Source: a virus. From it: 64,000 bases of DNA. The stretch is taken from positions 33,386 to 97,385 of IMG/VR virus record IMGVR_UViG_3300034101_003081. The stretch is one strand, 5' to 3'. The translations under genes and the position numbers were made by a program. Position 1 is the stretch's first letter. Each line of letters opens with the position of its first letter. Under the pieces are notes generated by a model that was given only the letters and a program-made list of their open reading frames with translations, had not been told where the DNA came from and did no database searches. Shown here piece after piece: positions 29,616-47,445 of the stretch.

Positions 29616-31106
29616 TCACGACGCAGCGGTCTTGAGGGCCACGATCGGACCAGCCTTCGTGTTGTCGCCGCAGTCAGCGGTGACGCAATCGAAGCGGCTC
29701 GTCGCCACGATCAGGGTCTGATCGAGTTCCGCATAGCGGTCGGTCGAGGTCTTCAGCGTCAGGCCACGACGAGTCGCGTAGTACGAACTCATCGAGAGAT
29801 CGCCGAAGAGGAACTTCACGACACCGGGATCGGCGCCCACCGCGCTCGAAAGCGTGTGGACGAAGACCACCGGATAGCCGAGCAGACGCATCTCGGCGGA
29901 AGCCGCAAGGTTCGCAGCGGTGTTGCCGCCGGCGAGGCCCACGTTGTTGACCAGGCCGAGACGCTGCACACTGGCGGCGAACACGGCAGGATTCACGTAC
30001 CACTTCGCGTTGCCGCGAGCGTACAGCGGAAGCCGGCCAGCCGTGGCGATCAGATCGTCCACGTCGAGGGTCAGGGCCCCGGTGTTGCCCGTCGCAGCCG
30101 TCACGACGCCGCCCGTGTGGGCGCCGTCGTTGATCTTGGTGGCGACGCCAATCATGCCGCCATGATCACCGCTGCCATTGCCAACGAAGCCAACAACGTC
30201 GACCAACTCGGCCAGCGACCTGGCGATCTCGCCTGTGATGTAGTCCGCCAGATTCAGGACGGAGTCCTCAAGAACCTCGCTCGACATGCGGTTCGCGACC
30301 GCGACCTTCTTGCAGACGAGTTGCACACGATCCCAACTGGCGTCGGAATCCTGCACTTGGGTATTTTCCCCAATAAAATAAGCCTTCAGGCCGCCAGTCC
30401 GACGGGGGATCACGAGGGTGTCCGACTTCATCTGGAGGTTGCGGGCGTTCGCGGGGAACGCGCCGTACTCTTCGACGAGGACGATCACCTCATTGAGAAC
30501 CTCCTCGGCCGTAAAGATTCCGCCGGCCGAATTGACGCCCTCGCTCAGGGCACGGCTGTCGATCACGCCGTGGTCAGCACACCAGCGAGCGGCGTTCTGA
30601 TCCTTGAGCAGCGTGGCCTTGTAGAACTGACCGGCGCGGTACGCACGCTCTTCGGCGTTCTGGCCCTTGAAGTTCTTGAGACGACCGGCACCTGGCAGAT
30701 TGTGATAGATCGACACAGACCGGCCCTCCTTGGCCCTGGGGTAAGCGACCGCCGATTCAGTGGCGGGCGTAGACTTGTCGAGGACCGCCCGGAGTTCCAA
30801 CTCCTTGGCAGCAACGCCCTCGTAGAACTTGATCTTCTCGCGGAGTTTCTCAGCCCGCTCGCAGAGGCAGCGGAGTTTCTTCTCCTTCTCCTCGTCCTCC
30901 GGCATCGCGCCTTCGGCGTCCTCGACGCCCTCGGGCTTGAAGCCGTTCTCCTCGACGTCGTCCTCGTCCTCGTCCTCTTCGCCCTCAACGGGCGGGACAG
31001 TCTCGGAACGCTCGTCGGACGGCGCCTCGTCCTGAAGGGCGCCCATCTCAGCCAGCACGGCAGCGAGTTCGTCGAGGAGAGACTTGATCTTGGCGGACGA
31101 TTCCAT
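29616..31106 (-). CDS. Major capsid protein, HK97 fold, with N-terminal delta domain
   Basis: Coiled-coil/acidic N-terminus, DSRALSEG..SAGG, A.FIGE, S.EVLEDS, G.G.G, LLGYPV, LFGDLS. Confidence 0.95.
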   Translation of the reverse strand: MESSAKIKSLLDELAAVLAEMGALQDEAPSDERSETVPPVEGEEDEDEDDVEENGFKPEGVEDAEGAMPEDEEKEKKLRCLCERAEKLREKIKFYEGVAAKELELRAVLDKSTPATESAVAYPRAKEGRSVSIYHNLPGAGRLKNFKGQNAEERAYRAGQFYKATLLKDQNAARWCADHGVIDSRALSEGVNSAGGIFTAEEVLNEVIVLVEEYGAFPANARNLQMKSDTLVIPRRTGGLKAYFIGENTQVQDSDASWDRVQLVCKKVAVANRMSSEVLEDSVLNLADYITGEIARSLAELVDVVGFVGNGSGDHGGMIGVATKINDGAHTGGVVTAATGNTGALTLDVDDLIATAGRLPLYARGNAKWYVNPAVFAASVQRLGLVNNVGLAGGNTAANLAASAEMRLLGYPVVFVHTLSSAVGADPGVVKFLFGDLSMSSYYATRRGLTLKTSTDRYAELDQTLIVATSRFDCVTADCGDNTKAGPIVALKTAAS

Positions 31107-31387: not shown

Positions 31388-33304
31388 CTACTTCTTCTTG
31401 ATGGAGTCAACGACGCCCTCCATTGCCGCGACTGCAACCGATGCAGAAGTCGGCAGAACGACCGTGGCTATGAGATTCCCGGCCGCGTTGGCCGTGACCT
31501 TAAAGCCCTTTCGGACAAGTTTCGCCATATACGACGGCGACCGAGACTTCACGACGACGTTGACTTCTTTCGGGGCGTTCTCTTCAGCGATCTTTTTCAC
31601 CTGGGCGATCTCGTCGCCCGTGAGCGTGCCAGACTTTCTGGACGGCGTGATCGTGTACCGAGACTTCCCCATGTCGACGTCGAAGACTTTCTCGCCCTTG
31701 CTGTCCTTGACGCGAAGCGTCAATTTTCCCTCTTTGACGGTCGCGACAGATTGCGGCGATCCACCGAGACGCTCGACAAGGCTCGCCACTTGCTTCTCGC
31801 TCGTGCCGATCTCGTCGATCTTCTTCATCACCCGCGTGGGTTGCATGCTGTTGTCGTAGAGCCCCTTCACGGCCCCGACGGCAGCCCCGACAGCAGCACC
31901 CTTGATGACATAGGGCGGGAACGGGCCCGTGACTCCAGCGGCAATCACGGCGCCTTTGACTGCCCCTGACGCTGCCCCTGCTGCGGCGTCGGCAATCTTG
32001 CCTCCGGCGCAGGTGTTTCCCTTCTGGAAGCCGCCTTCGCCCGTGCCGCAATTGCGGGACTGCGAGAAGGCCAGAAGACTAGCGTATCGACACTCAAGCG
32101 AGTCTTGCCTGAATCCTCGCCATTCTGCGAGATCGCGGCTTGTCGTGAGGGCGAACTCGCAAAACTCCTCGTACGATCTCTGCCCTCGATCCTTGGCCTT
32201 CTTCACCCGCTCCAGCATCTTCTTGTATCGCTGGTATCCGGCGCTGTTCTTGTCGGAGAAGTCGAGCGTGAGGTTGATGCTGCTGCCTTTTCTTGACCAG
32301 TACTTCTCTCCAGCCTTAGTGCTGAGAAGGTCTTGGAGCGTCAGCACTTCGCCGTTGCGTGCCCTGGCCTCGTTCTGCGGAGACAGAACGGGCTCCGGAA
32401 GGTTCTTGCTGTCTTCGAGGATTTGCGAAACGCGAGCGGGCGAAAGCGGAGCGTCAAACCCAAATCGGCCCCACAGCCTGTACCCCTTGTACGTAGAGTC
32501 TGATTCGCTGCCGGCTGCGAACGTCGCGGCTTTGGACGCTCCGGCTTGCTCTGCCTCGGCGAGCGACGCAATCATCTTGTCGATGATTGCCGCGCCGATG
32601 TTTCGCTCGATTGCCGACTCTCCGTGAGGCGAAGCGGCCTTCTCTCTTCCGATTGCTGCCTTGATGTCGTAGTCAACAGAAAAGAGGCCGTAATAGGCAA
32701 CCGGCGGATCATCGCCGTTCTTTCGCAACTGAACTTCCAGCGTGACATTGCCGACTGGCCTCTGCCCAGGCTCAGGGTTGCCTCCCATGTACACTGGGAC
32801 AGTGGACTCGATCTTGACTCCCTTTCGGTCGGAAAAGCCATCTGGAGTCCTCACTTTCAAGACTTCAGAAGTGAGATCAACTTCTGCATTCTTGCCGTCG
32901 CCTGCGCCGAAGCGGACGAGCGACGCGACGCTCTTGAATCCAGACTCCTTTGCAATCTCCGTGACCTGCTTGGCGTTGTCTGCGCTGATTTGCTGGATGT
33001 CCGGAACTCCCGGCAGGCCGCCGCGATGCGACAGCGGACGATCCTTGTTCCACGCCGCAGGAAAACCGTTGGACGTGTTTGCTCGCGGGCCGCCGGTAAC
33101 TGGGTTGGGGCGTGGCCGCGGAGGCCTCGCCTGTCCGCCTGGTGAGTCCTGGCCGCCGCCGCCTCCGTCGCCGGAAGCGCAAGTATTGCCTGGCGCGAAC
33201 TGCCCTGACTGGCGACCGCAGTCTTCGCCCATCGGCAGCATCAACTGCCGATCTCGCTCTTCGACGAAAGCGATGAGGTCTGCGTACCTCGCCTGCAAAC
33301 TCAT
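31388..33304 (-). CDS. Two-module head-associated protein (GNAT-like domain; Gly-zipper plus a domain shared with the portal)
   Basis: Two SL..RY..L.AF / C-x12-C tags and GYRLWGRFGFD. C-terminal domain is similar to part of the portal extension. Confidence 0.7.
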   Translation of the reverse strand: MSLQARYADLIAFVEERDRQLMLPMGEDCGRQSGQFAPGNTCASGDGGGGGQDSPGGQARPPRPRPNPVTGGPRANTSNGFPAAWNKDRPLSHRGGLPGVPDIQQISADNAKQVTEIAKESGFKSVASLVRFGAGDGKNAEVDLTSEVLKVRTPDGFSDRKGVKIESTVPVYMGGNPEPGQRPVGNVTLEVQLRKNGDDPPVAYYGLFSVDYDIKAAIGREKAASPHGESAIERNIGAAIIDKMIASLAEAEQAGASKAATFAAGSESDSTYKGYRLWGRFGFDAPLSPARVSQILEDSKNLPEPVLSPQNEARARNGEVLTLQDLLSTKAGEKYWSRKGSSINLTLDFSDKNSAGYQRYKKMLERVKKAKDRGQRSYEEFCEFALTTSRDLAEWRGFRQDSLECRYASLLAFSQSRNCGTGEGGFQKGNTCAGGKIADAAAGAASGAVKGAVIAAGVTGPFPPYVIKGAAVGAAVGAVKGLYDNSMQPTRVMKKIDEIGTSEKQVASLVERLGGSPQSVATVKEGKLTLRVKDSKGEKVFDVDMGKSRYTITPSRKSGTLTGDEIAQVKKIAEENAPKEVNVVVKSRSPSYMAKLVRKGFKVTANAAGNLIATVVLPTSASVAVAAMEGVVDSIKKK

Positions 33305-35238
33305 CTCGACCGTTCCTTCAGGAAGGCCAGCGTTTCGCTGATGACTTCGCGAGAACGCTTCAACTCTTCGATGCTTCGCTTGGATGGCTTCTTTCCAAGC
33401 ACCTTCTCTGAAACAGACTTCTGGGCGGCAGAGATTTTCTTATTGATGGCAGTCTTGGCCTTGTAGGCAACCTTGCCGATCGCGCCCTTGGCTGCTCCAA
33501 CGACGCTCCCAGTGACGGCCCCTGCGGCAGCGCCGACGACGCCGCCTGCGACGACGCCAAGCCCGGCACCTATGGCAGCGCCCGCTGCTGCATTTCCGGA
33601 GACAGTCGGCTCGTTCGGGTCGACAGGAGTCTCTTCGGCGTCCTCTTTCTTTTTGGCCTTTTCCTTGCCGGCTCTCTTTGGAGACTTGCCGGCACTGCCT
33701 CCAGCGCCGCACGAGTTGTCGACGCCGCCTCCGGAGCCCGTGGCGCAGAACGCTCTCTCTTCAAGGAACTGCTTCGTCTTCGCCAACTCTTCAGCGGCCT
33801 TGGCCTTGGTCTTGTTACGGGCGTCAGCGTGTCCAGACTTCTGGGCCACGAACTGCTGGTAACTCCGCTTCGCAACGGCAACGGTGGCATCGCCATACGC
33901 CGGGTAGGTTACTGGACCGGCGTCCAGTAGAGACTTGATCTTCGTGACAAGCCTCGTAGACCGTCCGCCTTCGTAACTCCACTTCTCGCCGCCTTCTGCG
34001 ACCACGAAACTGAAACTTGAGCCACGCAAGTCTCCTCTCGAAATCGACTCGGCGATGTCCTGGCGAGACTCCGGAAGCAGGCACTCGTACCGCAAGCCCT
34101 TCTCGTCGACGGTCATCTTCATCGTCGTCGGGAATCGGCCCAGGAGGTGGTTGGGGTCGTGATTGAACAGGCAGCGGGTCTCTAGTGGCCTCCCCTCACT
34201 GTCCTCGCGGCTTTCGACAAGCGAGAACGCACCGGGGTCAATTCTCTCGACAAAATCCCCCAGAAGCAACGAATCTTTCCCAAATCGGGCCGCGTACCCG
34301 ACGATGTAGGTCTGCGGCTTGCCCGTGGTCTGATCAGCACGCTTTTCGACCCGGAGAAGTTCTGGGTCAGCCTTCTCGACGTTGCTGAAGTTGCCAAGAA
34401 ACCGACGCTCGACGTTGGGCAGCACTGGGGCACTCCTTTGCTCGGTGGCGAAATAACGCTCGACAGCCTCTCGCAATTCCTTCGCGACGGGCTGGCGTTC
34501 CGGGTCTTCCTCGATTCGCTTCAGGCACTCCTCTCTTGGAGTGTCGATGTGGATGTACTCGACCGGAATATCTGACAGTTGTCCCTTCATCTCGTCGCCG
34601 ATATTCGTGGCGATGATCCACGTCCTGTCGACCGACGGCTGACGAAGGGCCTTTTTGATGATAAGGGCTCTGATGTCCGTACAGTAAGAGATCAGGTTCT
34701 TGTTTTTCTGGTGCGGAGGGAGTCCAGACAGGGCGCTCATTACTTTGTCAAAGTCAAAGACAACGTCATTGTCGCCCTTGTTTTGCATCACGTAGGAAGT
34801 CTTGCCGCTGGCGGGGGCGCCGTGAACGACGAAGACCTTCGGCTTGATGCCTTGTGTTGAGCCAAAGGGCCGCAGCGACCGGCCCTCCGCTTCGTCAGCC
34901 GCGTTCATCTGCTCGACGACCTTGCGGGCATACGCCCACCCGGCGTCGGAGCCCCAAAGAGCCCAGGCGATTCTCCCGTTGGACGGGAAGCCGTCGTCGC
35001 CTGGCTCCCAACCCCGGCCTTTCTTGTCGATCTCGTGCCGATCGAAGTACGCCTTCATGCGACGCACTGTGGCCGGCGAGAGTTTCTTGCCGTTCGACAA
35101 GTCTCGGGCTCTCGCGATACCGACGGCGGTGCCGCCTCGGCCGTGTTCGCGACGCCAGGCGAGGCCCTTCTCGGCCTCCTCGCGGACGCCGTCGGGCGGG
35201 GTGAAGTCGATGTGGGAGTATTTTTCAGGGATTGCCAT
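33301..35238 (-). CDS. Multidomain HK97-type prohead protease
   Basis: Protease core IVGYAARF, FVERIDPGAF, LFNHD, GRF, DEKGL, G.SFSF, VTYPAY. Extra N-terminal domain (RRMKAYFDRH..IAWALWG), P-loop GAPASGKT and C-terminal Gly-zipper. Confidence 0.9.
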   Translation of the reverse strand: MAIPEKYSHIDFTPPDGVREEAEKGLAWRREHGRGGTAVGIARARDLSNGKKLSPATVRRMKAYFDRHEIDKKGRGWEPGDDGFPSNGRIAWALWGSDAGWAYARKVVEQMNAADEAEGRSLRPFGSTQGIKPKVFVVHGAPASGKTSYVMQNKGDNDVVFDFDKVMSALSGLPPHQKNKNLISYCTDIRALIIKKALRQPSVDRTWIIATNIGDEMKGQLSDIPVEYIHIDTPREECLKRIEEDPERQPVAKELREAVERYFATEQRSAPVLPNVERRFLGNFSNVEKADPELLRVEKRADQTTGKPQTYIVGYAARFGKDSLLLGDFVERIDPGAFSLVESREDSEGRPLETRCLFNHDPNHLLGRFPTTMKMTVDEKGLRYECLLPESRQDIAESISRGDLRGSSFSFVVAEGGEKWSYEGGRSTRLVTKIKSLLDAGPVTYPAYGDATVAVAKRSYQQFVAQKSGHADARNKTKAKAAEELAKTKQFLEERAFCATGSGGGVDNSCGAGGSAGKSPKRAGKEKAKKKEDAEETPVDPNEPTVSGNAAAGAAIGAGLGVVAGGVVGAAAGAVTGSVVGAAKGAIGKVAYKAKTAINKKISAAQKSVSEKVLGKKPSKRSIEELKRSREVISETLAFLKERSR

Positions 35239-35389
35239 GTTCGTCCTCCTCTATAGGCTCCTGCTCTTTGGCTGGCTTCTTGCCCTGCATGAGCGAATAG
35301 AGCGACTTGCCGCCAAGCAGTTGCGTGGCCTGCTCGACGCGAGACAGGAACTCCTGCTGCGACTCTCCATCCTTCGGAACGATGAACAT
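35225..35389 (-). CDS. Small hypothetical protein (54 aa, not in the ORF track)
   Basis: Manual translation MFIVPKDGESQQEFLSRV...; it fills the gap between the giant gene stop and the protease start. Confidence 0.55.
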   Translation of the reverse strand: MFIVPKDGESQQEFLSRVEQATQLLGGKSLYSLMQGKKPAKEQEPIEEDEHGNP

Positions 35390-38300
35390 TTACTTCCTCT
35401 TCTTTTTCTCGCGACGACGGTCGGCGATCCCGCTCTCGCCGTACTTTGACTGGGCGGCATCGCTTTTTCTTGGCGGCTTCATGTCGACAGCCTTGAACAC
35501 TTCATCGAACTGCTCGTCATTGCGGACATAGCCGAGCGTGACGCCAGTCCAGTACTCAGCCAAGAACTCAAGCGGGTCTGTCATTCCGTACATCGAGACG
35601 TCCATGGCGCGATCAAGCATGTCCTTGCTCGCCCCAGCCGGCGGCTTTGGCTGAGAATGGTCCGCCCGAAAGTATTGATTGTTGTGTATTGCGGAGATGG
35701 CGTCCATGACTTGATTTCTGAACCGGCCAACGAAATCCGACGTTACCTTGTCCTTGCCGCCTGCCCACGATGCAATCACGTCGTGCTGTAACTTGTGTGC
35801 GTATTCGTGCAGGACATAGTGCGACGGGTCGTCGGTCGAAAACCAGCCCCTGTCGTACGCTCGCGAGAGAGACTTCTCGTCGTCGGCACGATCTTGGATG
35901 ACAGTGATCTCTCCGTTCTTCAGATTACACGCCGCTTTGGCTCCGACCATCGAGGCGGCAAGCCTGATCTTCTCGATGATGCTAGTGATGCCTGCCTCTG
36001 CGGCGAATGTGTCTACCGTCGCGTTGAACTTCGAGAAGTTGAACGACGAGTCCTTGAGGCCAGGAGCGTGCTTGGCGGCGAGAGCCAATTTCGCCAAGTG
36101 ATTGGCCGCTGACTTTGCCGGGTCTCCTGTTAAGAAAGAAAAAAAGCCGGGCTTCTTGCTGGCGTCACGGTCGAACGAACCGTCGATATCGAACGACGTG
36201 AACCCAAGTTGCTTTGCCACCTCGGACGGCGGCATGGACTCCATCAGAAACGCGATGTCCTCTGCCGCGTGCTTGGCGTTTCCTCTGTCGACGTGTTCTC
36301 TGACTCGCTTTATGGCAAGCGGATTTGCGGCATCGCTATACGCGCCTTTGGATGGCCTTGGGCTTTCTTGGCCGCTGCCTTTGTCCTGGCAGTCGTTCTT
36401 CGGCCCGAAACGTCCGTCGTCGTCCCTCCCGCAGTCGGCAGAGCGAGACTCGACCCACTCATAGTCATCCAGTTCCCCGTCATCCCAAATCTCGTTCCAC
36501 ATTTCATCAAGCCGCAGCATGTCCTCGGGGGACAGCCATTCGTCGCCAGACCCGAGCGGCATTTCGCGACGATCGGTGCCGAACTTCTTGATGAAGCGAT
36601 CCATGATTTTGGACTGCGGGCTCGACCTGTCTTTCAAGTCGAACGTAACGTCCAAGTCTTCGCCGTTGTCTCTCCACCAGCGGGTGCCCTCGGGGGTGGC
36701 ATGGAGATCGAGCAGAGACTTGGCGTGCGACAAGTCTGGCGGCAGTTTCGACTTGATGCTCGCCGGGAGTGGTGCATCAAACCCCATGCGGGGCCAGATC
36801 GTGTAGCCACGCCATGGAGTGGCCGTGACGCCGCCTTTGGTAGCAGACGAGTTCCCGGCCGCGTTGAGGACGATGCGAGACACGCCTGACTTACGGGCCG
36901 CTTCAACGGACGAGACCATGGCTCGGTAGAACTCGCGAGCAGCGGCGTGCCGCTTTGCGTCGTCGCCTTTGATGGCGTCCGCGACGTTGACCGTGCTGTG
37001 GTAAACAACCGTCTCGCCAGCAGCCGTGACGCCGATCACCGACGAGCCGTGCAGGCCGCCGCCTACGCCGGCGAAGTCCCGCTCGAAGGCGAACATCACA
37101 GGCGTGACTTTTGAGTCTGGAAACTCCATAGAGAAGTCTGGGGCAGGGCGGACGAACACGTCCGAATCTTCGCTGCCGCCGGCGACCATTGGGGCCAACT
37201 TCGGGTCGATGCCAGCCGCATCGAGCGACGACTTCACTGTCTTCGGAGCCGAGATGTTGATCGAGCCGTACCGGCCGTCGCCAAGCGGTGGCGAGGACGA
37301 ATCTCGCGATGTCTCAGGCCACGTCAGCGACTCGCTCGAAGACCAGCGATCGCCTCCAGGCGAGGCTGTCGCTTGGCCGGGGGAGTCGTCTGCGCTGCAC
37401 GAGTTGTCGACGCCGCCGCCTTCTCCCGTAGGGCAGAAGGCGCGGGCGTTTCGGCGATTCTTTTCGAGAACGTACCGGCCGTAGCGATTCAGGCGAGCGC
37501 CGAGCGACTCGTACGCCTTCTTTGCGGCGGGCGCTACATTATGCTCCTCGTCTGAGATTACATCGAACTGCTCAGACATGGAGTCTAGCAGCGACTTGTA
37601 GGCTCCCTGTCCCCTGAAAGGCTTAGACACTTCCGAGTAATGAACGTACAGTGCTTTTTTGTCAGAAGACAAATCCACATGCACGAACGCCTTCACTTTG
37701 CTTTTGTCGTCGAGGAGGCTGACGACGTGGCTCGCCGCTTCATCGCGACCGGGGGGCTTGTTGCCCTTTGTGTTTTGTTCCAGAAACCATTTGCCGTGCT
37801 TTGTGGAGCCAGTCGCGTCAACCTTTCCCATCCATGATGGCTGTCGAACTGCGTCCCCGCTGCTGCCTCCATCCTTCGACGAGCAGTCATTCTTGACGCC
37901 GCCGCCATCTCCGGTTGGGCAGAAGGCGCGAGACTCTTCAGGGGACTGCATCAGCCACGGCCGCACCTTGATGTGCTGGTAGCCGAGCGGCTCGTCGCCG
38001 TCGCCCTTGCCCTCGGCACGGCTCGACTTCTTTTTCCGCTTCGCCAACTCTGCCTTGATGATCTCTGGGCCGATCTTCGAGGCGTAGGCATTCTGGGCTG
38101 CGTAGTTGCCGGTCTTCTCGTAGACGGCGTTCTGGCCGAACGTCTCGGCGAAAAGAGCAGGCCACGCGCTTTCAGGGAGCGTCGAGGCATGGGTCAGCAT
38201 GCCGTTGTATTCGCCGTTGGTCGAGAACGAGTAGCCGCCGCGAACGTGCGCGACCATGTCATGCACGACCCGGAATAGGTCGTTGGCGATCATGGGCTCG

Positions 38301-41300
38301 CCGTCGGCGGTCTTGTACTTCGTCTCGCGAAGCATCGGATGATCTGGCGTGGCCGAGCCTGTGCCGAACCCTCGCTCGGTCATAAAGAACGAGAACTCGC
38401 CGGTCTTGGCGACCTCTTCTCGCATCTTGTCCGAGTTGGGCTTCGTGCTGCCCGGCGGATCGCCGTACGGCTCGCCATCGCCTCGCCAGGCCTTGGCCTT
38501 GAGCCCGGCCGCCACGAGGGCCTCGTACTGCCTGCCGATCTCGTCGACGAGGTCGGCGTAGGACTTCTCGGCCTCTGGAGTCAGCGACGACCCAGAAGAC
38601 GTCTGCTCGTCGGCGGCCGACGTGAGAATCTTTTCAGGCGGCGTGTCCGCGCGACCTTTTGCCCTGTCCCAGACAGACTTCGGATCGGGCGAGACGGAGT
38701 CGATGGCGTCGCGGAACTTATCGGAGCCGCGAGGGAAGGACTTGGGCAGCGACTCCTGCGTGCGGCCAGGCGAGCCTGCCGCAGGCGAGCCGTCGTCAGA
38801 GCCGCACGAGTTGTCGACGCCGCCGCCGTCGCCTGTTGGGCAGAAGGCGCGGCTGCTCTTCTTTGGAGGATTGTTCAATACAATCCACTCAGACTCCTGA
38901 AAGTCGTCAGTGCCGTCTCCGGCACTCCCGAATCTCGAAAGATCAAGGCCGGTTGCGTTCTTTAGCGTGTAGACTTGACCGCCGTACTTCTTGGCCCACT
39001 TTTCTGCGACCTGCTTGTCGGATGTCCAACCCAGGAGCGTAGAGTCGTTGTCGCTCGGTGGCTTGTCGTCGCCACGGTATAGCGTCGGGGCGGGCTCGCC
39101 GTTCTCGATGACCTCGCGGAGAATGGCTTTTGCCTGCTCTCGCATCTTCGCGCCAGATGCGGACTGCGGCGCTGGTCTTCCGCTCAACTCGTCCTTCAGG
39201 TGCAAGTCAATCTCGGAGGTGAATCCCTTCCACCTCGCAACAGCAGACTTGAGAACGCCTCCATCGCTTGAGTTGCAATCGTTCTTGATCCCGCCGCCGT
39301 CGCCCGTGGGGCAGAAGGCGCGAGACTCCTTGGCTCGCTTGGTCAGGAACTCAACCGCGAGGTCGGCGAACTCATCGTCGTCCATGCTCGCGATGAAGTC
39401 CGCGAACAGAGCCTGCTCGGGGCCGCCCTTCTGGTCGGAATACAGAGGCAGGCTCATCGGCTCGGCGATGACTCCGAGAGAACGCTTGCTCTCTCGCCGC
39501 CGCTTCTGGTAGTTCGCTGGCTCGGTGACGATCTTGCGGATCACTTCCGAGTAGAGCGAGGGCTCGCCTGGGACCGTGGTCGTGCGAGACCCAAGCGTGC
39601 CCCACGCATCCTGCTCGTCCTGCCACAGGATGTCCTGCATGTAGGCGACCGAGACTCCGGTTCGCTGGGCGGCCTCACGCATCGCGCGGATCATGTTCGC
39701 CCGCATGACCGACGTCGTCGGCGCCCGCATGACGTTGGCTTGGTTTTTCAGGATGGCAACAGCCAAGCGATCCAGTTTGTACCGCTCTGCCGTGCCAGTC
39801 CCCTTGTCGGGGTGCGGGAACTTGTCCTTCTTGTACTGCTTGTCTCTCGCCTCGGCCCAGTCGGCGATCTGCTGCGGGATGGCGCCAGTTCTCTTCATCT
39901 GGGCGACGAGCGTCCGGAACTGCCTGCCGTCCAGCCCCATCGCGGTGAGTTCCTTGCGGGGGATGTCCTTGGTCGACGCCATCAAGTCGGAGGCATGCTT
40001 CTTCGCGAGAGACTCCGACGACTTGGACACCAACTCGCCGGAGAGCCTGCCCCACGTTCTCGTGAACCAGATGTCAGCGGTGAGAGCCTCATCGTCGCCG
40101 GTGTTGTTGGCGAAGAACGGGCCAACTTTTGGGCCGAAGATGCTGAACGGCGGGACAACTTCGGCGACGGCGTAGTCATTCGCCTTGTAGCGATCGCCTT
40201 CGGTGCCAGGAACCTTCGAGAGGAAGAACTTCTCGAAGTCGCTGACCTTGATCGGCGGCCCGGTGAATATCCGGCGAGCCTCTTCAAGGCCGACACGGTC
40301 GATGATCTTCTGGAGTCTCGCGAAGTTAGCGAGCGTGTTCTCGGCTCCGGCTCCGGCAATGCGAATGCCGCTGCCGAGTTTCGCCTTGCTTGGGTCGGGC
40401 TCCTCGAAGAACGCCGTCAGCACGGCGTCCGCACGGAGCATGTTCTCGTACGGGTTCGCTTCCGGAGAAGTCAAAGCCTGAGCGGCACGGAACAGAAACT
40501 CTGCCTGCGGCGAGATGCCTTCAGACGGCTCGCACTCTCCGCTGGGGGTCTCGACGCCGACGCAGAACCCTGACGCTGTCCTGCCGCCTCGCATGAGCGG
40601 CTGAATCTTGGCGTACTCTTCGATCTGTGCCCGGCGGTCCTCTGGGCTGTAGAAGTTGGGCGAGACTCCGCGAGCCCTTGCGGACTCAACCTGGGACACG
40701 ATGCCAGACACCATGTACTCGAAGTCATCTCCTTCGAGCGGCTTCGTAGTGTCGATGGTGCGGCCACGATGCTCGGCCTGCCTAGCGACGAGGTAGTTGC
40801 CGACCGAGATCGGGTCGATCTCGTCCTTGCCTGCAAGTCCACGCACTGGCGTGGCGCCTGGGATGGACGTGGAAAGAATCTTCTTGCCGTCGTCGCTCCG
40901 CTTGGTTGGGCTCTTCTCGACAGACTCCTTGAAGACGTCGACGTGGCTCGCGCCAGGTGTCCACTTGAGCGGCTCCTGCGACGGCGATTCGGCTTTCTTC
41001 GCAGCGCGGGGTTTCTTCTCTTTTTCCTTCGACGGCGATCCGTCGCCCTTCGCGCAGTCGTTGCCCTTGGCGAACTGACCGCTCTCGGTCTGCTCGCAGT
41101 CGTCGCGATGCTCGACGCCATCGTCGAACGCACTGCGAGTCTTGTTGCGTTCCTTCAGCCGGGCAAGCATCTTCTTCATTCGCTCGAAACGCTTGTAGCC
41201 AGCAGTGGTCTGGTCCGTGAAGTCGAGCGTCAGTTCAATCGTCGTGCCGTTCTCGTTCCACCAGCGATCGCCCTCGGGCGTGGCGATCAAGTCCTGAACG

Positions 41301-44080
41301 GTCATGGCGCCGGCGTTGGCCTTCCGCTTCTGTTGTGGCGTGAGTTTGACGTCCTCCTTGATCGTGTCGATGTCGGCCCGATCAAGAGGGCCGTCGAAGC
41401 CAAACTGCGGCCACAGCCGATATCCTTGCAGGGCACTGGTCGATGTTCCTGCGGCGATCGTGTCGGCCCGGATTGCTCCGGACTTCTCGGCGACCGAGAG
41501 CGAATCCGTCATTCGCTCCAGCACGAGACTGACGATTCGCCGCCTGTCGGCCGAGTCGTCTTCCAAGTCTCCGCTGATGGAAGACATGGCGGCAGAATCG
41601 AGCGACATGCTGTCGTAGTTGACGACGAGATTCCCGTCGTCGTCCTTCATCAGCGACACCATGTTCTCGATATTTCCAAGACGGCCAGAGCCGTCCGGTG
41701 CAACTGGAATCGAAGAGTTGACGATGACGGATTCGCCGAAGGCGTCGATGCTGACTGATCCGCCAGGCCGAACACCGCCGCTGATCGCGACAACGTCCTC
41801 GACGCCTCGGACTCTTCCGAAGTCAGAGAGCGTGTCCTTCAGAGACTGGACGTCGTTCACGGCGAACGAGTCGAGGACTTCGGCGCCCTTAAATGGGGGC
41901 GACGACGAAATGGCTTCTGCGTCCATGTCGACGCTCTCTTCGTCCTCCCACGACGAGCCGCCTTCGTTTTCGTCGGCCGCGCAGTCGTTGCCGGCCCCGA
42001 ACCTTCCGCCTGCGGCTCGGCCGCAGTCGGCCCCGGCCCTGAACTCTGCCTGCTCGTCGAGCCACTCGAAGAACGCCCTCGACTGGTTGCGGGACTTGAG
42101 CCTCTTGAGCCGAGCCGCCTGCTTCTGGAATCTCGCGTAGCCGAGGCTTTTCTTGTCATTGAGGTCAATAGACATACTGAGCGTCGAGCCGTTCTCGTTC
42201 CACCAAACATCTCCCTCGTGGAACGAAATCAAGTGCTGGACGGTAATCTTGGACCGCGGCAGAGCCGCGACGAGTGCAGCGTGCGGCGGCACATAGCGAG
42301 TAGCGAACAAGTCTGGCCTCGCCGCTCGCATCAACTTCTCTACGAACTGCGGAGAAGCCTGCGAGATCGCATGCAGTTGTGTGTTTTCGAGTTCTGCATC
42401 GAACCCAAACTGCGGCCAGAGTCGGTAGCCCTTGAGGTCGTACTCCGGTCCTCCGGCGGCGGACATCTTGATGCGACTCAGGCCAGTATCATCAGCGGCG
42501 AGCATCGCTTCGATGACAGCCTGCTGCATGAGGCTCGTCGCTCTCGCAACCCGCTGCGGAGTCGCGTTGACTTCCGGGCTTGGGTGCATCCCATTTAGTC
42601 CAAGGACATGCTCTCTGCCTTCCTTGTACACGGCGATATTTACGTTGAAGTGGCCCTCAGACGGGTCTCCGTCGCGAGATAGCGGGATTTCATTTTCAAC
42701 GCTAATGTAGGCGCCGAAATCTGGATGGCCGGCGCCTGAAAATACTGCCTTGCTGCCACGAACAGTCGCGCCGCCCATCGTGGCAAGGTGGTCGAGAGAC
42801 TTGATTCCAGCCTGGGCCATTCCGCCCTGGAGAGACTGCGGGTCGGGAATATCAACGCTCGTGGCTTTGTCTGCTCCGGCGTACGGAGGCTTGTCTTTCA
42901 GGTCGCTGCCGGAGAGCAGTACAGAAGATTGCGAGTCTTGCCATGACTTGTCGACCTTGGCCGGCGACGCAGAAGGCGACTGCTCGCCAGGACTGCACGA
43001 GTTGTCGATACCGCCGCCTTCGCCGGTGGGGCAGTACGCTCGCACTTCAGCCCACGCCTCGTCGAGAATGCCGCGGCATTCGACGTCAAAGAATGCGTCG
43101 GCCAAGTCCAGGCCCCGCTTCGAGAACTTCTGGCGGATCGCCTGGAATCGCTTCCAGCCTGGGCTCTTCGAGCCGATCTTGAGCGACATCTCCATCTCGC
43201 CGCCATTCTTTTCCCACCACTCCTGGCCCTCTTTGGTCTCGTAGAGGGCCTGGATCGTGAGAGCGCCTGCGGCTTTTTCTTTCCTGGCTCGCGGTGAAAG
43301 AATCCTGTCAGACAGTCCGCTGCCGTAGGAACTGAAGAACCCCTTTGCGAGCGACCATGTCGGCGTAATGCGGCCTCGCGGGATCACCCCGTCGAATCCA
43401 AGCCTCGGCCAGATGCGATACCCGCTGAACTCCTTGTGCCTGCTGCTGCCGGCGGCCAGCATCTCGATCCGGTCGACGCCGATCTTCTCGGCCTCGACGA
43501 TGCTGCTGACCGTGCCCTTCATCATCTGCCTTGCGATCGCGACACTCGAAGCCTGTCTGGCCTTTTCGCTGACCATCAGCATCGTGTAGGACATGACGAG
43601 GTCGTCGTTCTCTTCACGCGACAGAGAGACGGCCGTCTGGGCTGCGCCCTGAACCCCTGCGATGGGCATGCTGCTGATCACGGTGACCGTGTCTTCGATC
43701 CACCGCTCTGGATCACTGCCGGTCATAAAGTCAGTCAGTGCGCGCATGCCTCCGTGGCCGATCGTGACCTGCGAGTCATGGTCAACGGCCGCGCAAGCGC
43801 GAGCGGCCTGGTCGAGCGTGACGCCGATCTCTCGCAAGGACTTATTGACGAGTTCGCCGTCGACGATCACGACGGAACTGACGCCAGCCAGTGACTTCGC
43901 CGGCGGCGACTCTTTCAGTTCGTCGCCCTTGTACACAACAGTGCCTTGCTCTCGCTTCCAACTGCTGTCGGCTTTTACTTTGCCAGCGCCGCCAGGCTCG
44001 CCAGACGAGCAGTCGTTCTTGACGCCGCCGCCTTCGCCGGTGGGACAGAAGGCCCGGTACTCTTCTTCGAGAAAAATCAC
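35390..44080 (-). CDS. Giant polyvalent head-associated protein (about 2900 aa) made of tagged enzyme-like modules
   Basis: GTG at 44080 overlaps the portal TGA. Contains nine Cys/Gly tags, four GY.[IL]WP..GFD domains, and ART-like, HhH-like, HDxxxH, GNAT and HEYAH modules. Occupies the MuF position between portal and protease. Confidence 0.85.
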   Translation of the reverse strand: MIFLEEEYRAFCPTGEGGGVKNDCSSGEPGGAGKVKADSSWKREQGTVVYKGDELKESPPAKSLAGVSSVVIVDGELVNKSLREIGVTLDQAARACAAVDHDSQVTIGHGGMRALTDFMTGSDPERWIEDTVTVISSMPIAGVQGAAQTAVSLSREENDDLVMSYTMLMVSEKARQASSVAIARQMMKGTVSSIVEAEKIGVDRIEMLAAGSSRHKEFSGYRIWPRLGFDGVIPRGRITPTWSLAKGFFSSYGSGLSDRILSPRARKEKAAGALTIQALYETKEGQEWWEKNGGEMEMSLKIGSKSPGWKRFQAIRQKFSKRGLDLADAFFDVECRGILDEAWAEVRAYCPTGEGGGIDNSCSPGEQSPSASPAKVDKSWQDSQSSVLLSGSDLKDKPPYAGADKATSVDIPDPQSLQGGMAQAGIKSLDHLATMGGATVRGSKAVFSGAGHPDFGAYISVENEIPLSRDGDPSEGHFNVNIAVYKEGREHVLGLNGMHPSPEVNATPQRVARATSLMQQAVIEAMLAADDTGLSRIKMSAAGGPEYDLKGYRLWPQFGFDAELENTQLHAISQASPQFVEKLMRAARPDLFATRYVPPHAALVAALPRSKITVQHLISFHEGDVWWNENGSTLSMSIDLNDKKSLGYARFQKQAARLKRLKSRNQSRAFFEWLDEQAEFRAGADCGRAAGGRFGAGNDCAADENEGGSSWEDEESVDMDAEAISSSPPFKGAEVLDSFAVNDVQSLKDTLSDFGRVRGVEDVVAISGGVRPGGSVSIDAFGESVIVNSSIPVAPDGSGRLGNIENMVSLMKDDDGNLVVNYDSMSLDSAAMSSISGDLEDDSADRRRIVSLVLERMTDSLSVAEKSGAIRADTIAAGTSTSALQGYRLWPQFGFDGPLDRADIDTIKEDVKLTPQQKRKANAGAMTVQDLIATPEGDRWWNENGTTIELTLDFTDQTTAGYKRFERMKKMLARLKERNKTRSAFDDGVEHRDDCEQTESGQFAKGNDCAKGDGSPSKEKEKKPRAAKKAESPSQEPLKWTPGASHVDVFKESVEKSPTKRSDDGKKILSTSIPGATPVRGLAGKDEIDPISVGNYLVARQAEHRGRTIDTTKPLEGDDFEYMVSGIVSQVESARARGVSPNFYSPEDRRAQIEEYAKIQPLMRGGRTASGFCVGVETPSGECEPSEGISPQAEFLFRAAQALTSPEANPYENMLRADAVLTAFFEEPDPSKAKLGSGIRIAGAGAENTLANFARLQKIIDRVGLEEARRIFTGPPIKVSDFEKFFLSKVPGTEGDRYKANDYAVAEVVPPFSIFGPKVGPFFANNTGDDEALTADIWFTRTWGRLSGELVSKSSESLAKKHASDLMASTKDIPRKELTAMGLDGRQFRTLVAQMKRTGAIPQQIADWAEARDKQYKKDKFPHPDKGTGTAERYKLDRLAVAILKNQANVMRAPTTSVMRANMIRAMREAAQRTGVSVAYMQDILWQDEQDAWGTLGSRTTTVPGEPSLYSEVIRKIVTEPANYQKRRRESKRSLGVIAEPMSLPLYSDQKGGPEQALFADFIASMDDDEFADLAVEFLTKRAKESRAFCPTGDGGGIKNDCNSSDGGVLKSAVARWKGFTSEIDLHLKDELSGRPAPQSASGAKMREQAKAILREVIENGEPAPTLYRGDDKPPSDNDSTLLGWTSDKQVAEKWAKKYGGQVYTLKNATGLDLSRFGSAGDGTDDFQESEWIVLNNPPKKSSRAFCPTGDGGGVDNSCGSDDGSPAAGSPGRTQESLPKSFPRGSDKFRDAIDSVSPDPKSVWDRAKGRADTPPEKILTSAADEQTSSGSSLTPEAEKSYADLVDEIGRQYEALVAAGLKAKAWRGDGEPYGDPPGSTKPNSDKMREEVAKTGEFSFFMTERGFGTGSATPDHPMLRETKYKTADGEPMIANDLFRVVHDMVAHVRGGYSFSTNGEYNGMLTHASTLPESAWPALFAETFGQNAVYEKTGNYAAQNAYASKIGPEIIKAELAKRKKKSSRAEGKGDGDEPLGYQHIKVRPWLMQSPEESRAFCPTGDGGGVKNDCSSKDGGSSGDAVRQPSWMGKVDATGSTKHGKWFLEQNTKGNKPPGRDEAASHVVSLLDDKSKVKAFVHVDLSSDKKALYVHYSEVSKPFRGQGAYKSLLDSMSEQFDVISDEEHNVAPAAKKAYESLGARLNRYGRYVLEKNRRNARAFCPTGEGGGVDNSCSADDSPGQATASPGGDRWSSSESLTWPETSRDSSSPPLGDGRYGSINISAPKTVKSSLDAAGIDPKLAPMVAGGSEDSDVFVRPAPDFSMEFPDSKVTPVMFAFERDFAGVGGGLHGSSVIGVTAAGETVVYHSTVNVADAIKGDDAKRHAAAREFYRAMVSSVEAARKSGVSRIVLNAAGNSSATKGGVTATPWRGYTIWPRMGFDAPLPASIKSKLPPDLSHAKSLLDLHATPEGTRWWRDNGEDLDVTFDLKDRSSPQSKIMDRFIKKFGTDRREMPLGSGDEWLSPEDMLRLDEMWNEIWDDGELDDYEWVESRSADCGRDDDGRFGPKNDCQDKGSGQESPRPSKGAYSDAANPLAIKRVREHVDRGNAKHAAEDIAFLMESMPPSEVAKQLGFTSFDIDGSFDRDASKKPGFFSFLTGDPAKSAANHLAKLALAAKHAPGLKDSSFNFSKFNATVDTFAAEAGITSIIEKIRLAASMVGAKAACNLKNGEITVIQDRADDEKSLSRAYDRGWFSTDDPSHYVLHEYAHKLQHDVIASWAGGKDKVTSDFVGRFRNQVMDAISAIHNNQYFRADHSQPKPPAGASKDMLDRAMDVSMYGMTDPLEFLAEYWTGVTLGYVRNDEQFDEVFKAVDMKPPRKSDAAQSKYGESGIADRRREKKKRK

Positions 44081-47000
44081 GTCGAGAACTTTCCATTCGT
44101 GACCGCAGACAGAAGCCGCATGACGTCGTCGCCGTAGTCCTTCCCAGACCACAAGCCAGCCAGAGTCTCTGCGACGAACTCACGGTGGCTCGTCGCTGCG
44201 TAGCGAGAGACGCTCTCGGCGACCTTTCGGCCCTCGTCGCCGAATGAGAGAGCAGAAGAAGCCTCGTACGACTCTTCGTCGGCCAAGGCGTGATGGCGAT
44301 GAGCCAGTTCGTGAAGCAGCGGATTCGGCTGCGAGAGCCAGCCGCGTGCAGAGGCCAGCCGGAACGAGGCAACAGCCTCGTGGTTCAGAGATTCAGAAAC
44401 GTAGATTGAGTCCGTGTCGAGGTCGTACTCGGCAATAGCCCTGCATTCGGCTGCTGGCCGAAACACAACGCTCGGGACGTCGACCTCGCCGGACTCTCTC
44501 AGTTCTGCGGCGAGGTCTTCTGCTGCTTGGCTGCCCGCTCGACCCTGACCCTCTCCCTCATCGCCTCGATCGCCGCCGCGATCTCGTCCGCCTTCGCCCC
44601 CGACGGGAAGTCGAACCGCACGAGTTTCTCTTTTTGGCCTTGTTCGTCTGCCATCGTATTCATCCTTTCTGATTTCTTTCTTTTCGTTCAAATCCCAGAT
44701 CGCGAGTTGACTCGTCGACTCAGCCGAATCAATGGCGTCGTTGATGTCGTCAAACGGCTCCGACAGATCAAGGTACACCGCATCTTCTTCGGCATTGTAC
44801 CAGCCGCCGATGTGAAGTGCAGGCCTGTCTGCGAACTTAGACTTGTTCTCATCCAAGAACTTGGAGATCACCTGTCCTGTGACTTTCTGCCCAGACGGAA
44901 CAATGGTCTCTGACTCGGGAACGACAGACACCATGTAGCCAGACGTGGGACTCGACTCCGAAACAGGATGGATAGAGAAGCCCTTAGTCTTTTCGAGAGA
45001 CTTGATCGCCATGTCTGCGATTCGGTCAGACTTGGCGCTGCTGCTTTCTTTGCCGCTGCCGCCCCCTGTGCCGCCGCCTGTGTCGGGAGCAAGTTTTTCT
45101 CCAGCGCCGCACGAATTGTCGATCCCGCCGCCTACGCCCGTCGGGCAGAACGCCCGCTGTTGCTTGCCCTTCTTGGCGATGCGACCGCCAGTCTTGAGGG
45201 ACGAGTCGTCGCGGTGAGCAGAGACAGGGTACTCTTTGCCTCTGTTGTAGAGCCGGTCGCTGATCTTCTCGGGGAACGCTGGCTTGGCGAGCGACTCGAT
45301 CTTCGACGCCTGATCTTTCGACAGCGTCTTGCCGACAGGGACAATGCCAGCGCCGCTGTAGCCCATCTCCACGTAGAAGATGTCTTTGCCGGACGAGTCG
45401 CGAACGCTGATGCCGATCTTGTCGCCAGCAACTTTTGCCGACGACCGGCCAGGCTTGCCGCCGAGTTGACGCACCAAGTCCTTGATGCGACGCTCGGACG
45501 TGCCCATCTGGTACAGTTTCTTGGCGACGCGAGTCTGCTTTTTGTCGCCTTCGCCGCGACGAAAGCCGCGGACAGGATCGTCGCTTTCGCTGGCGCCGGC
45601 TCCTGTGCCACAGTCGCGAGACTCCGGCATGCTCAGTTTCTCTTCAGGAATGATCCACAGTTTGCAGATCGCGTTTGGAGAGATGATTCCCTTCACGACC
45701 TCGCACGATCCGCCCTCTTCGTAGTAGATGCAGTTCCGGCATGCGATGCCGCGAGACGCGAAGGGATTCTTCTCCATGTAGTGAGCGCCGCTCGGGCCCT
45801 GCTGCGGCCAGCGACCACTCTTCTTGACGATCTCTTCCTGGGCGTCGTACAGGGCCTGGTTCTGCGGCGAGAGGGCTCGCTTCTCTTGGATCGGCTTGAG
45901 TTGCGAGACCTTGATTCCAGCCTCTTCGCCTGTCTCTTCGTCGACGACGAGGGCTACTGGCTCGCCTGGCTGGACTTCGATCTTCTCGCCGGACTTGAGG
46001 TCAAGCGTGCCCTTCTCCATGACATGCTTGACGCGGCCAGTCTTGCCGTCGCCGTAAGAAACAAGCACGCCTTCTTCTTTCGGCTTCGACTGCTCGCCAT
46101 GCTCGGCAGGGTTCGGAGACTTGCCAGTCTTGACCTCCGGAAGACTCGGCACGCCTCCTTGGGCCGGCGGCGGCGGGCCGCCTGGTGCGGGGTCCATCAT
46201 CGGGTCAGGCTTCGGCTTGACTGCATCTTCGAGGGTCTGCATGTTCATGCCGACGAAGTGCTTGTCGCCGTTTTCGAGCGGCGCCATGTTCTCCAGCCGG
46301 CGGCAGTCGTTGATCGAAAAAATCCCGAGGTTCGTCATCGTGGAGTAGTAGCCAGCGCGAGAGTTGGAGTCCCCTCGCATCAGCCCGCGGACGTCGAACT
46401 CGGCAACGAACAAGTCGTCGTTGTAGATCAGCGACCGAGAGATCGCGCTCTCGATGCGACGCAGCCAAGGCACCAGCGTGTAGGTGACGAAGTCCTGGCC
46501 CTCGATCTCCGGGTTGCCGCCCGACTGGCCCTGCACGAGCCTGAGAGGCAAGCGATAGACCCTCGCGATCTCTTCAGACTGAAACCTTCGCGTGGACTCG
46601 AACTGCGACTGCTCGGCCGTGAAGCCGACAGGCTCGACCTTGAGTCCGTTGGTGAGGATCGCCGTCTTGTACGCACGATCGACGCCGCGATGGAGTCTCT
46701 CCCAATTGTCTCGCAGCCGCTCGGCGGCCTCGGGCGAGAGCGATGCGTCTGTCTGTAGCACCATGCCAGGCCGGGCAGAGTTCGCCCAGAACTTGGCAGC
46801 GTGAATCTCGCAGGCCCTCGCGAGAGCAATCGCCTCGCGGGCAACCTCGACCGGGACCATGCCCTTGATGCCGTCGGGCTCCGGCGTCCACCGGACGTGC
46901 ATGATCTGGTCTTGCGTGGACGGCTCCAGCCTGCCCGTTTCTGGATTCGTGTACATGTAGCGAAGGCGGCCGTTTTCAAGCCGCTCCACTTCCATGCGAG

Positions 47001-47445
47001 ACGGGTGGAGGTTGATCAATTCAGAGACAGCGCCATACCGGCCACTCTTGATCTGCGTGTAGGAGTTGCCCCACAGGCAGAGGTTCATCACCATCTGCTC
47101 GAAGAACTCGAACTTGGTCTGCCAAGCGTTGGGCGCGAACGACAAGACCCGGTGCAAGGGGATGTCGCGGGCGATGTCTTTGCTTCCGCCTTCGCCGCGT
47201 CGATAGACGTGCAAGGGAAGGGAACTAATCGTTTCTGCCAAGATGCGGCAACAGGCCAAGACAACAGTGGACTGGAGAGCCGTCTCGGGCGTGACTCGGA
47301 CCTCGGCGTCTGTTCGCCACCGGCCGCCGTAGTTTTCTCCCGAGAGCAGGAAGTTGTTCCACGAGATGCCGCGAATCTCTGGATCAGACAGCCCGCGTTC
47401 TGGTGTCCAGACAATGTCAGACAAGGCGCGATCTTCGGTACTCAC
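44077..47445 (-). CDS. HK97-family portal protein with a roughly 700-aa C-terminal extension
   Basis: Portal core: V.AC..ILAETISSLP, PN.WQT..EF, WGNSY, LHP.R, QF.E.R....EIARVY..P, SIND.R..EN. The extension carries Cys/Gly tags and HELAH. Confidence 0.95.
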   Translation of the reverse strand: MSTEDRALSDIVWTPERGLSDPEIRGISWNNFLLSGENYGGRWRTDAEVRVTPETALQSTVVLACCRILAETISSLPLHVYRRGEGGSKDIARDIPLHRVLSFAPNAWQTKFEFFEQMVMNLCLWGNSYTQIKSGRYGAVSELINLHPSRMEVERLENGRLRYMYTNPETGRLEPSTQDQIMHVRWTPEPDGIKGMVPVEVAREAIALARACEIHAAKFWANSARPGMVLQTDASLSPEAAERLRDNWERLHRGVDRAYKTAILTNGLKVEPVGFTAEQSQFESTRRFQSEEIARVYRLPLRLVQGQSGGNPEIEGQDFVTYTLVPWLRRIESAISRSLIYNDDLFVAEFDVRGLMRGDSNSRAGYYSTMTNLGIFSINDCRRLENMAPLENGDKHFVGMNMQTLEDAVKPKPDPMMDPAPGGPPPPAQGGVPSLPEVKTGKSPNPAEHGEQSKPKEEGVLVSYGDGKTGRVKHVMEKGTLDLKSGEKIEVQPGEPVALVVDEETGEEAGIKVSQLKPIQEKRALSPQNQALYDAQEEIVKKSGRWPQQGPSGAHYMEKNPFASRGIACRNCIYYEEGGSCEVVKGIISPNAICKLWIIPEEKLSMPESRDCGTGAGASESDDPVRGFRRGEGDKKQTRVAKKLYQMGTSERRIKDLVRQLGGKPGRSSAKVAGDKIGISVRDSSGKDIFYVEMGYSGAGIVPVGKTLSKDQASKIESLAKPAFPEKISDRLYNRGKEYPVSAHRDDSSLKTGGRIAKKGKQQRAFCPTGVGGGIDNSCGAGEKLAPDTGGGTGGGSGKESSSAKSDRIADMAIKSLEKTKGFSIHPVSESSPTSGYMVSVVPESETIVPSGQKVTGQVISKFLDENKSKFADRPALHIGGWYNAEEDAVYLDLSEPFDDINDAIDSAESTSQLAIWDLNEKKEIRKDEYDGRRTRPKRETRAVRLPVGGEGGRDRGGDRGDEGEGQGRAGSQAAEDLAAELRESGEVDVPSVVFRPAAECRAIAEYDLDTDSIYVSESLNHEAVASFRLASARGWLSQPNPLLHELAHRHHALADEESYEASSALSFGDEGRKVAESVSRYAATSHREFVAETLAGLWSGKDYGDDVMRLLSAVTNGKFST

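Follow-up and report, generated by a model that had tools for sequence, protein, structure and literature searches.

Two-cysteine tags mark module junctions in four phage head proteins and may be headers of protease-released cargo

The stretch of DNA analyzed here (the window) comprises 64,000 nucleotides, positions 33,386 to 97,385 of the IMG/VR virus record IMGVR_UViG_3300034101_003081 (97,385 bp, 60.6% G+C). Its minus strand carries, in order, genes for TerL, a portal, a giant protein, a protease, a 638-aa protein, and the major capsid protein (MCP), which is the head-gene neighborhood of polyvalent proteins. The four consecutive head genes from the portal to the 638-aa protein contain copies of a short peptide with two cysteines, here called the tag, and its role is the subject of this report (Table 1, window coordinates). 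A six-frame regular-expression scan returned eight type-A tags ([FY]C[PA]TGxGGG[VI][KD]N[DS]C), five type-B variants (C-x12-13-C), and one decayed copy, all on the minus strand and all where an earlier note on this DNA had placed them. No further copies were found elsewhere in the whole 97,385-bp genome, and a degenerate DNA pattern matched eight times, with 0.00 matches expected (100 shuffles). The sequence RDCGTGAG, which the note had called a truncated tag, is a decayed type-B tag, since the homologues P0088 and P0085 have a complete loop there. Arginine stands at −3 from the first cysteine (Cys1) in all eight type-A tags, with glutamate at −5 in five of them, and it lies 2–5 residues ahead of Cys1 in four of the five type-B tags. 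The note was also right that the tags are preceded by E-x-R, matching the delta/mature boundary of the MCP (D-S-R/A-L-S, the slash marking the predicted cut), and are followed by Gly/Ser-rich spacers. Its mention of a conserved 48-bp DNA was an overstatement: the copies average 76% identity in DNA and share no run longer than 24 nt. Nearly every conserved codon varies at synonymous sites across copies; what is conserved is therefore the peptide, on which selection acts. The same variation and the 76% identity led us to reject recent DNA repeats as the source of the likeness.

Table 1. Tags, predicted cut sites, and genes in the window. A slash marks the predicted cut.
Feature	Position	Strand	Description
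TerL ORF	47456-48760	minus	434 aa
Portal fusion	44077..47445	minus	1122 aa; PF04860, 3.9e-93; phrog_12
Giant polyvalent protein	35390..44152	minus	2920 aa as longest ORF; 9 tags, 10 modules
Protease fusion	33301..35238	minus	645 aa; PF04586, 6e-30; PF13671, 1.4e-5
638-aa protein	31388..33304	minus	
Major capsid protein	29616..31106	minus	186-aa delta domain; PF05065, 2.9e-35, from residue 195
Predicted MCP maturation site	30543-30560	minus	D-S-R/A-L-S, residues 184-189; 13 relatives retain [DE]-[SA]-R-A
Type-A tag 1	44009..44050	minus	EYR/AFCPTGEGGGVKNDC
Type-A tag 2	42995..43036	minus	EVR/AYC...
Type-A tag 3	39275..39316	minus	ESR/AFC...; left junction of variable cassette
Variable cassette	38849..39259	minus	ART-like module 5; other module in L062, none in L001 and L022
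Type-A tag 4	38804..38845	minus	SSR/AFC...; right junction of variable cassette
Type-A tag 5	37883..37924	minus	ESR/AFC...
Type-A tag 6	37397..37438	minus	NAR/AFC...
Type-A tag 7	45109..45150	minus	QQR/AFC...; in portal extension
Type-A tag 8	33709..33750	minus	EER/AFCATG...; behind protease domain
Type-B tag	41981..42025	minus	EFR/AGADCGR...GNDC
Type-B tag	41054..41098	minus	EHR/DDCEQ...GNDC
Type-B tag	36389..36433	minus	ESR/SADCGR...KNDC
Type-B tag	33179..33220	minus	N-terminus of 638-aa protein; no Arg close by
Type-B tag, hybrid	32009..32050	minus	SQSR/NCGTGEGGFQKGNTC; same type six times in P0156
Decayed type-B tag	45595..45624	minus	ESR/DCGTGAG; portal residues 608-617
Loop-less site	45868..45885	minus	E-K-R/A-L-S; portal extension; full tag at this position in homologous portals
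Site ahead of S78 domain	34330..34347	minus	E-K-R/A-D-Q; E298, R300, A301 invariant in 14 homologues
HEYAH motif	35795..35809	minus	C-terminal zincin-like module of giant protein
HELAH motif	44299..44313	minus	C-terminal zincin-like module of portal fusion

The four tag carriers are mosaic proteins. In the portal fusion, the core (residues 61–386) is followed by a Pro-rich linker, small domains, a 4-Cys cluster, the decayed tag a tenth of a kilobase downstream of that cluster, a shared domain, a type-A tag, a module, and the zincin-like HELAH end. The compact cluster (CxxC...C...C, 45664–45741) precedes the first tag in some homologous portals. The gene of the giant protein likely starts at the GTG at 44080, because homologue P0068 begins MIFLEEEYR; this codon overlaps the portal stop as GTGA and places a 9-residue leader (M-IFLEEEYR) ahead of the first tag. 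The protease fusion consists of an N-terminal domain, an AAA_33 kinase-like domain (135–258), the S78 protease (300–463), a type-A tag at 498, and a Gly-zipper tail, and its gene overlaps that of the 638-aa protein by 4 nt. The latter protein is made up of a leader, a type-B tag, the GNAT-like module X5, the hybrid tag, a Gly-zipper, and a C-terminal domain common with the portal extension. In both proteins, the Gly/Ala-rich hydrophobic Gly-zipper run stands right behind a tag (33400–33700 in the protease fusion and 31850–32000 in the 638-aa protein; PF13441, sub-threshold at 0.003), and it might give ejected proteins a membrane-active segment. The protease fusion ends (33304–33324) in F-L-K-E-R-S-R, which looks like the P side of a junction whose loop is missing, and its homologues terminate in R-R-A; gene ends therefore seem, from these termini, to coincide with cassette junctions.

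The tags sit at module boundaries, as had been claimed, and lay outside the folded parts examined, namely an AlphaFold2 model and the Pfam domains of relatives. The modeled tag-module-tag segment (38 aligned rows, predicted local distance difference test [pLDDT] 76) has a confident core at approximately residues 40–325, with pLDDT below 50 in both tags. This core is present in five copies here, of which one paralogue was modeled and aligned with the other four. It resembles the GNAT fold in the model (Foldseek E approximately 1e-3, VIA Z 5–7), and nearly all of the top 50 VIA rows are GNAT, with middling scores. A profile of module X matched no solved structure by sequence. A Pfam search gave no match in the giant or 638-aa protein, and single modules reached only sub-threshold values (GNAT at 0.008, DUF7178, Gly-zipper). 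The best relatives differ from module to module along the giant protein, and some of them are on portal fusions; the Pfam domains found in relatives (ART, Ntox46, zeta toxin, GNAT, 2H) fall between tags. Tags also follow leaders of 3–16 residues at protein N-termini and occur on stand-alone small proteins, and each module therefore seems, from its sequence context, to need its own copy of this header.

Comparison with close relatives demonstrated the module shuffling at tags that the note had proposed. Identity between the window and relative L062 is 96.6% as far as 39260, which is 15 nt beyond tag 3; the two are unrelated from 39259 to 38849, and from 38848, the start of tag 4, their identity is 98.8%. 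At the same place, relatives L001 and L022 carry a single tag without any module, and presumed ART-like "homologues" between the same two tags are unrelated modules. Other breakpoints lie 0–63 nt from tags or inside the decayed tag, and 62–66% of the ends of high-scoring segment pairs in the giant protein fall in tag-centered windows that cover approximately 17% of it. A module can thus be present, replaced, or absent between tags with near-identical flanks, and the tags are therefore junctions of cassette gain, loss, and replacement between related phages. Exchange could proceed by recombination in the short shared DNA, or only in-register joints could survive. These breakpoints, together with the disorder of the tags in the model, would also fit flexible joints that are never cut and simply ease module recombination, with polyproteins that work intact and a match to the MCP site due to coincidence or shared ancestry. 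There is precedent for uncut transfer in the polyvalent proteins N4 vRNAP and TraC1 (PMC5512222). We consider this explanation unlikely, since a plain linker needs neither the conserved cysteines nor the asparagine and aromatic residue described below, since nothing is joined at the protein N-termini where tags also stand, and since the residue at −3 tracks the MCP site in three lineages.

A profile was built from 13 tag copies; 8000 candidates were scored, and 174 proteins matched (120 listed). In a profile search of 1.84 billion representatives, 580 clusters (50% identity) were found at E ≤ 1e-3 and 164 at E ≤ 1e-10, nearly all with 2–10 copies. Domains among the matches listed include portals of the HK97 and lambda types, S78, MuF, ART, Ntox46, zeta toxin, GNAT, and 2H. 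The tag is, judging by these sequences, a family trait and not a local repeat. Its type-A consensus (254 copies) reads E-x-R-A-F-C-P-T-G-E-G-G-G-[VI]-D-N-S-C, followed by a Gly/Ser-rich spacer. Across 869 copies in 226 proteins, both cysteines are 99% conserved, the asparagine is invariant, an aromatic residue is conserved, and the cysteine spacing is fixed at C-x11-C or C-x13-C. Carriers and modules are of head and effector types, and stand-alone tag proteins also exist. Two of these, in the records behind L061 (G009, 71758–72378) and L044 (G010, 15111–15563), are proteins of approximately 150–200 aa with a leader, one header, and one domain, and one of them is located far from head genes.

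The strict DNA pattern was found in 86 stretches of approximately 60 IMG/VR contigs, and in only two contigs of metagenome-assembled genomes among 185,579 prokaryote genomes; carriers therefore seem not to be common prophages. No close relative was found in the phage collection, where similarity of the giant protein and a portal homologue to cultured phages is limited to single domains or to the portal core, and there is therefore no experimental relative. A tblastn search with a 40-aa tag against 50,697 phage records gave no match, for which low-complexity masking is the probable cause, and the motif string was not found in the searchable literature. Two variants of the tag were seen along the way. 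The metagenomic protein P0156 (1370 aa) has six repeats of a third flavor, N-C-G-T-G-A-G-G-F-Q-P-G-N-T-C, to which the hybrid tag at 32009 belongs. At L071:5775-6350, a degenerate A-F-C-P-T-G-D-E-A-R-S-C is followed a few residues on by G-K-F-A-S-G-N-T-C and looks like a decaying A/B hybrid.

The residue at −3 suggests a link between the tags and capsid maturation. It is uniform in 132 of 138 multi-tag proteins (mean 70.6 and maximum 80 in shuffles) and constant within a contig, yet it differs between lineages, which are named after it here (R 164, N 29, K 8, Y 7, F 4, L 4, E 2, H 1); from A-F-C onward, the tag is the same in all lineages. Within the R lineage, to which this phage belongs, 13 MCP relatives and one distant one keep [DE]-[SA]-R/A, nine residues ahead of A-G-[GS]. 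The MCP of HK97 is cut during maturation at K103/S104. Its sequence, N-K/S-L-G-S-D-A-D-S-A-G-S, has the same spacing, and the predicted R186/A187 aligns with K103/S104. The system thus resembles the removal of the HK97 gp5 delta domain by gp4 (S78) in the families of both protease and MCP and in the distance from the site to S-A-G-[GS], and here too the S78 protease is encoded in the same gene module as a PF05065 MCP that bears a delta domain. Unlike this phage, HK97 has no cargo polyproteins and no Cys-loop. In the K lineage (G006, with an S78 protease), the MCP reads L-E-Q-K/S-L, and its site likewise aligns with HK97 K103/S104. The N lineage has a DUF6260 MCP and a DUF2213 protease in place of S78; neither PF05065 nor the MCP of this phage was found in N-, Y-, or L-lineage genomes. 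Its MCPs (n = 8) have an invariant asparagine where conservation begins (column identity 0.36 before, 0.73 after), with alanine next in seven of the eight. The residue at −3 is therefore the predicted P1 of the MCP in the R, K, and N lineages, so that tags and MCP share a motif there, and tags and MCPs are also alike at P3, which is E/D in the R lineage and V/T in the N lineage. In this phage, E/D-x-R/A-L-S is also present at two loop-less sites, one in the MCP and one at a portal position that bears a full tag in homologues, and E-x-R-A is invariant right ahead of the S78 domain. The −3 residue and the MCP maturation residue change together between lineages, including lineages that differ in protease family. 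This strengthens the idea of cutting, and these comparisons suggest that the head protease likely cuts immediately before A-F-C. For the single E-lineage genome, which has V-E/A at the Pfam start of the MCP part and for which no relatives were found, the match is anecdotal; P0051 is an E-lineage protein with a lambda-type portal.

Several points weigh against this reading. The tag at 33179 has no arginine within 10 residues, the nearest E-E-R being 11 residues upstream, and some E-x-R motifs lie inside folded domains; consequently, E-x-R alone does not define a site. MCPs of the Y and L lineages were looked for and not located, so the agreement covers the R, K, and N lineages, and the cut in N-lineage MCPs was placed from the conservation profile alone. 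Asparagine is an unusual P1 for a serine protease. The two tags of G009 differ at −3 (Y and H), and the uniformity within proteins could derive in part from internal duplication. Cutting also fails to explain the strong conservation of the loop, because the MCP and one portal site have E/D-x-R/A-L-S without it. More broadly, packaging, cutting, delivery, and any loop chemistry are all inferred. A predicted complex of the S78 domain (301–480) with a 40-aa tag alignment scored 0.12, against a mark of 0.32, and is counted neither for nor against cutting.

A different enzyme could be the one that reads the tag. Zincin-like (HExxH) modules on the same polyproteins might recognize and cut it in cis or in trans in place of the prohead protease. 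Of the 226 tag proteins, 78 contain HExxH where 7.7 would be expected, a ten-fold enrichment; the motif falls mostly in the last tenth of the chain and is present on tag proteins in five of six complete genomes. A reader common to all lineages would be supplied in this way, and Iyer and colleagues proposed a processing role for zincins in polyvalent proteins (PMC5512222). However, cutting by a zincin gives no reason to expect agreement of −3 with the MCP maturation residue, the tag proteins of G009 have no HExxH, and the modules form several unrelated subfamilies, none of which matches Pfam here, MPTase models included. We judge zincin cutting to be quite improbable.

We think it fairly probable that each tag heads one cassette in a modular array of cargo and that the head protease cuts before it. 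The tags double as junctions for cassette exchange, as the comparison of relatives demonstrated. A cassette would consist of the two-Cys loop, the Gly/Ser-rich spacer, a folded module, and a short tail ending in the P1 residue favored by the head protease of the phage. Cassettes would be strung on components of the prohead, namely the C-terminus of the portal, the protease, the giant protein in the MuF position, and the 638-aa protein. At head maturation, the S78 protease would cut E-x-R/A, the motif of the capsid delta/mature boundary, and would free approximately a dozen modules beginning A-F-C-P-T-G. The loop itself appears to be neither required for nor specific to the head protease. Because it is unneeded for cutting and independent of the protease family, it would serve the released or loaded module in another way; our leading guess is that the two cysteines form a clasp or handle by which the module is retained or leaves.

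What the loop does can be approached from its chemistry. A disulfide, or a metal shared with a second tag, could form in the virion and open in the host cytoplasm, thereby holding or releasing cargo, which would be compatible with cutting. Both near-invariant cysteines and their fixed spacing speak for such a redox or metal clasp, and chemistry that needs no reader is favored because no lineage-specific gene is common to all tag-bearing phages. Nevertheless, the model lends no structural support (pLDDT below 50 in the tags, with 38 aligned rows), and the tag has no CxxC and no histidine partner, and we regard a clasp as rather unlikely. It is possible, and somewhat better favored in our view though still doubtful, that the two-Cys loop is a universal, protease-independent cargo signal of tailed viruses, read by a feature of HK97-fold heads or by redox or metal chemistry, that determines if a module stays inside or exits together with the DNA. 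The invariant N-x-C could alternatively be a rare glycosylation sequon for the glycosyltransferase of the head module (28233–29018). This is barely conceivable and was rejected, given that four complete genomes with tags, from the N, Y, and L lineages, lack the enzyme, which was found only in G013 of the R lineage.

Phage-type polyvalent proteins offer the closest comparison, having been proposed to be packaged, processed, and delivered with the DNA (Iyer, Burroughs, Anand, de Souza, and Aravind, 2017; PMC5512222). As in those proteins, which carry at least two effector-type domains per polypeptide, there are many such domains here (ART, GNAT, zincin, 2H, toxins), with 10 modules in the giant protein, beside portal and MuF head genes. 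With regard to the MuF and MPTase domains typical of polyvalent proteins, this phage has no Pfam match to PF04233 or MPTase, although HExxH motifs are present and tag-bearing relatives have PF04233. Unlike polyvalent proteins as described, each module here has a fixed two-Cys header, the junction residue tracks the head protease, and the carriers include the portal and the protease; the polyvalent-protein paper proposes processing mediated by zincins and does not mention "cysteine", "linker", or "glycine" (PMC5512222).

The internal proteins of T4 provide a second parallel. Their capsid-targeting sequence is an N-terminal leader of approximately 10 aa that is removed by an S77 protease. Both systems would combine a short N-terminal signal with a cut by the prohead protease at a motif that is also on the capsid protein; T4 cargo is injected, as the cargo here would be. 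The T4 signal precedes the cut, is discarded, and occurs once per protein; here, the conserved element comes after the predicted cut and would remain attached to its module, several modules are joined in one chain, and S78 or DUF2213 takes the place of S77. The T4 gp21 motif is (I/L)-x-E, as cited in 10.64898/2026.03.04.709575. As this motif and the protease family differ and the conserved element lies behind the predicted cut, a T4-type capsid-targeting sequence was rejected. In giant phages, the prohead protease cuts head and ejection proteins (SPN3US gp245, phiKZ gp175), with one motif likewise shared by capsid, portal, protease, and ejected proteins (PMC10052503). Their sites remove N-terminal propeptides from separate proteins (13 of 14 sites), with no repeated header and no polyprotein (PMC10052503). 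Encapsulin cargo-loading peptides are also short conserved peptides that label unrelated enzymes as cargo of an HK97-fold shell, but they are usually C-terminal, have no cysteine, bind a defined shell pocket, and involve no proteolysis.

To our knowledge, capsid-carried, injected proteins have been described for only a handful of model phages. If the proposed cassette structure is right, the header and protease site would let injected effectors (ART-, GNAT-, toxin-, and zincin-like) be predicted from metagenomes, and a testable specificity rule for head proteases would follow, with the same residue expected at −3 and as P1 in capsid maturation. The cassette structure would likewise account for the reshuffling of the arsenal, in which near-identical relatives keep, swap, or lack the module between a given pair of tags. 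If the loop were in addition a universal cargo signal, scanning sequences for it would be enough to catalog the proteins that uncultured phages inject, and it could serve to package proteins of choice in capsids. New here are the lineage-specific −3 residue that matches the predicted capsid P1 in three lineages and the polymorphism of cassettes between tags in close relatives.

Other known elements were considered for the tag. An intein or Hint domain exceeds 130 aa, begins with Cys or Ser, and ends in His-Asn before Cys, Ser, or Thr; self-processing of this kind was rejected for a tag of 13–15 residues that has no histidine and one residue between Asn and Cys. Zinc knuckles and ribbons have two CxxC-type pairs or four ligands per unit, and were rejected for a tag with only two cysteines, 11–13 residues apart, and no conserved histidine. 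Intein-like, lipobox, sortase, RTX, and sulfatase motifs were compared by eye, and the consensus does not fit them.

Two observations concern the terminases. In the window, the TerL ORF aligns only to positions 247–674 of the 812-position PHROG profile, and the N-terminal ATPase part therefore lies outside this ORF. In G009, the TerL (L101:12115-14586) has 823 aa and matches the terminase profile in two separate stretches, 56–378 and 729–810, which suggests an inserted element such as an intein.

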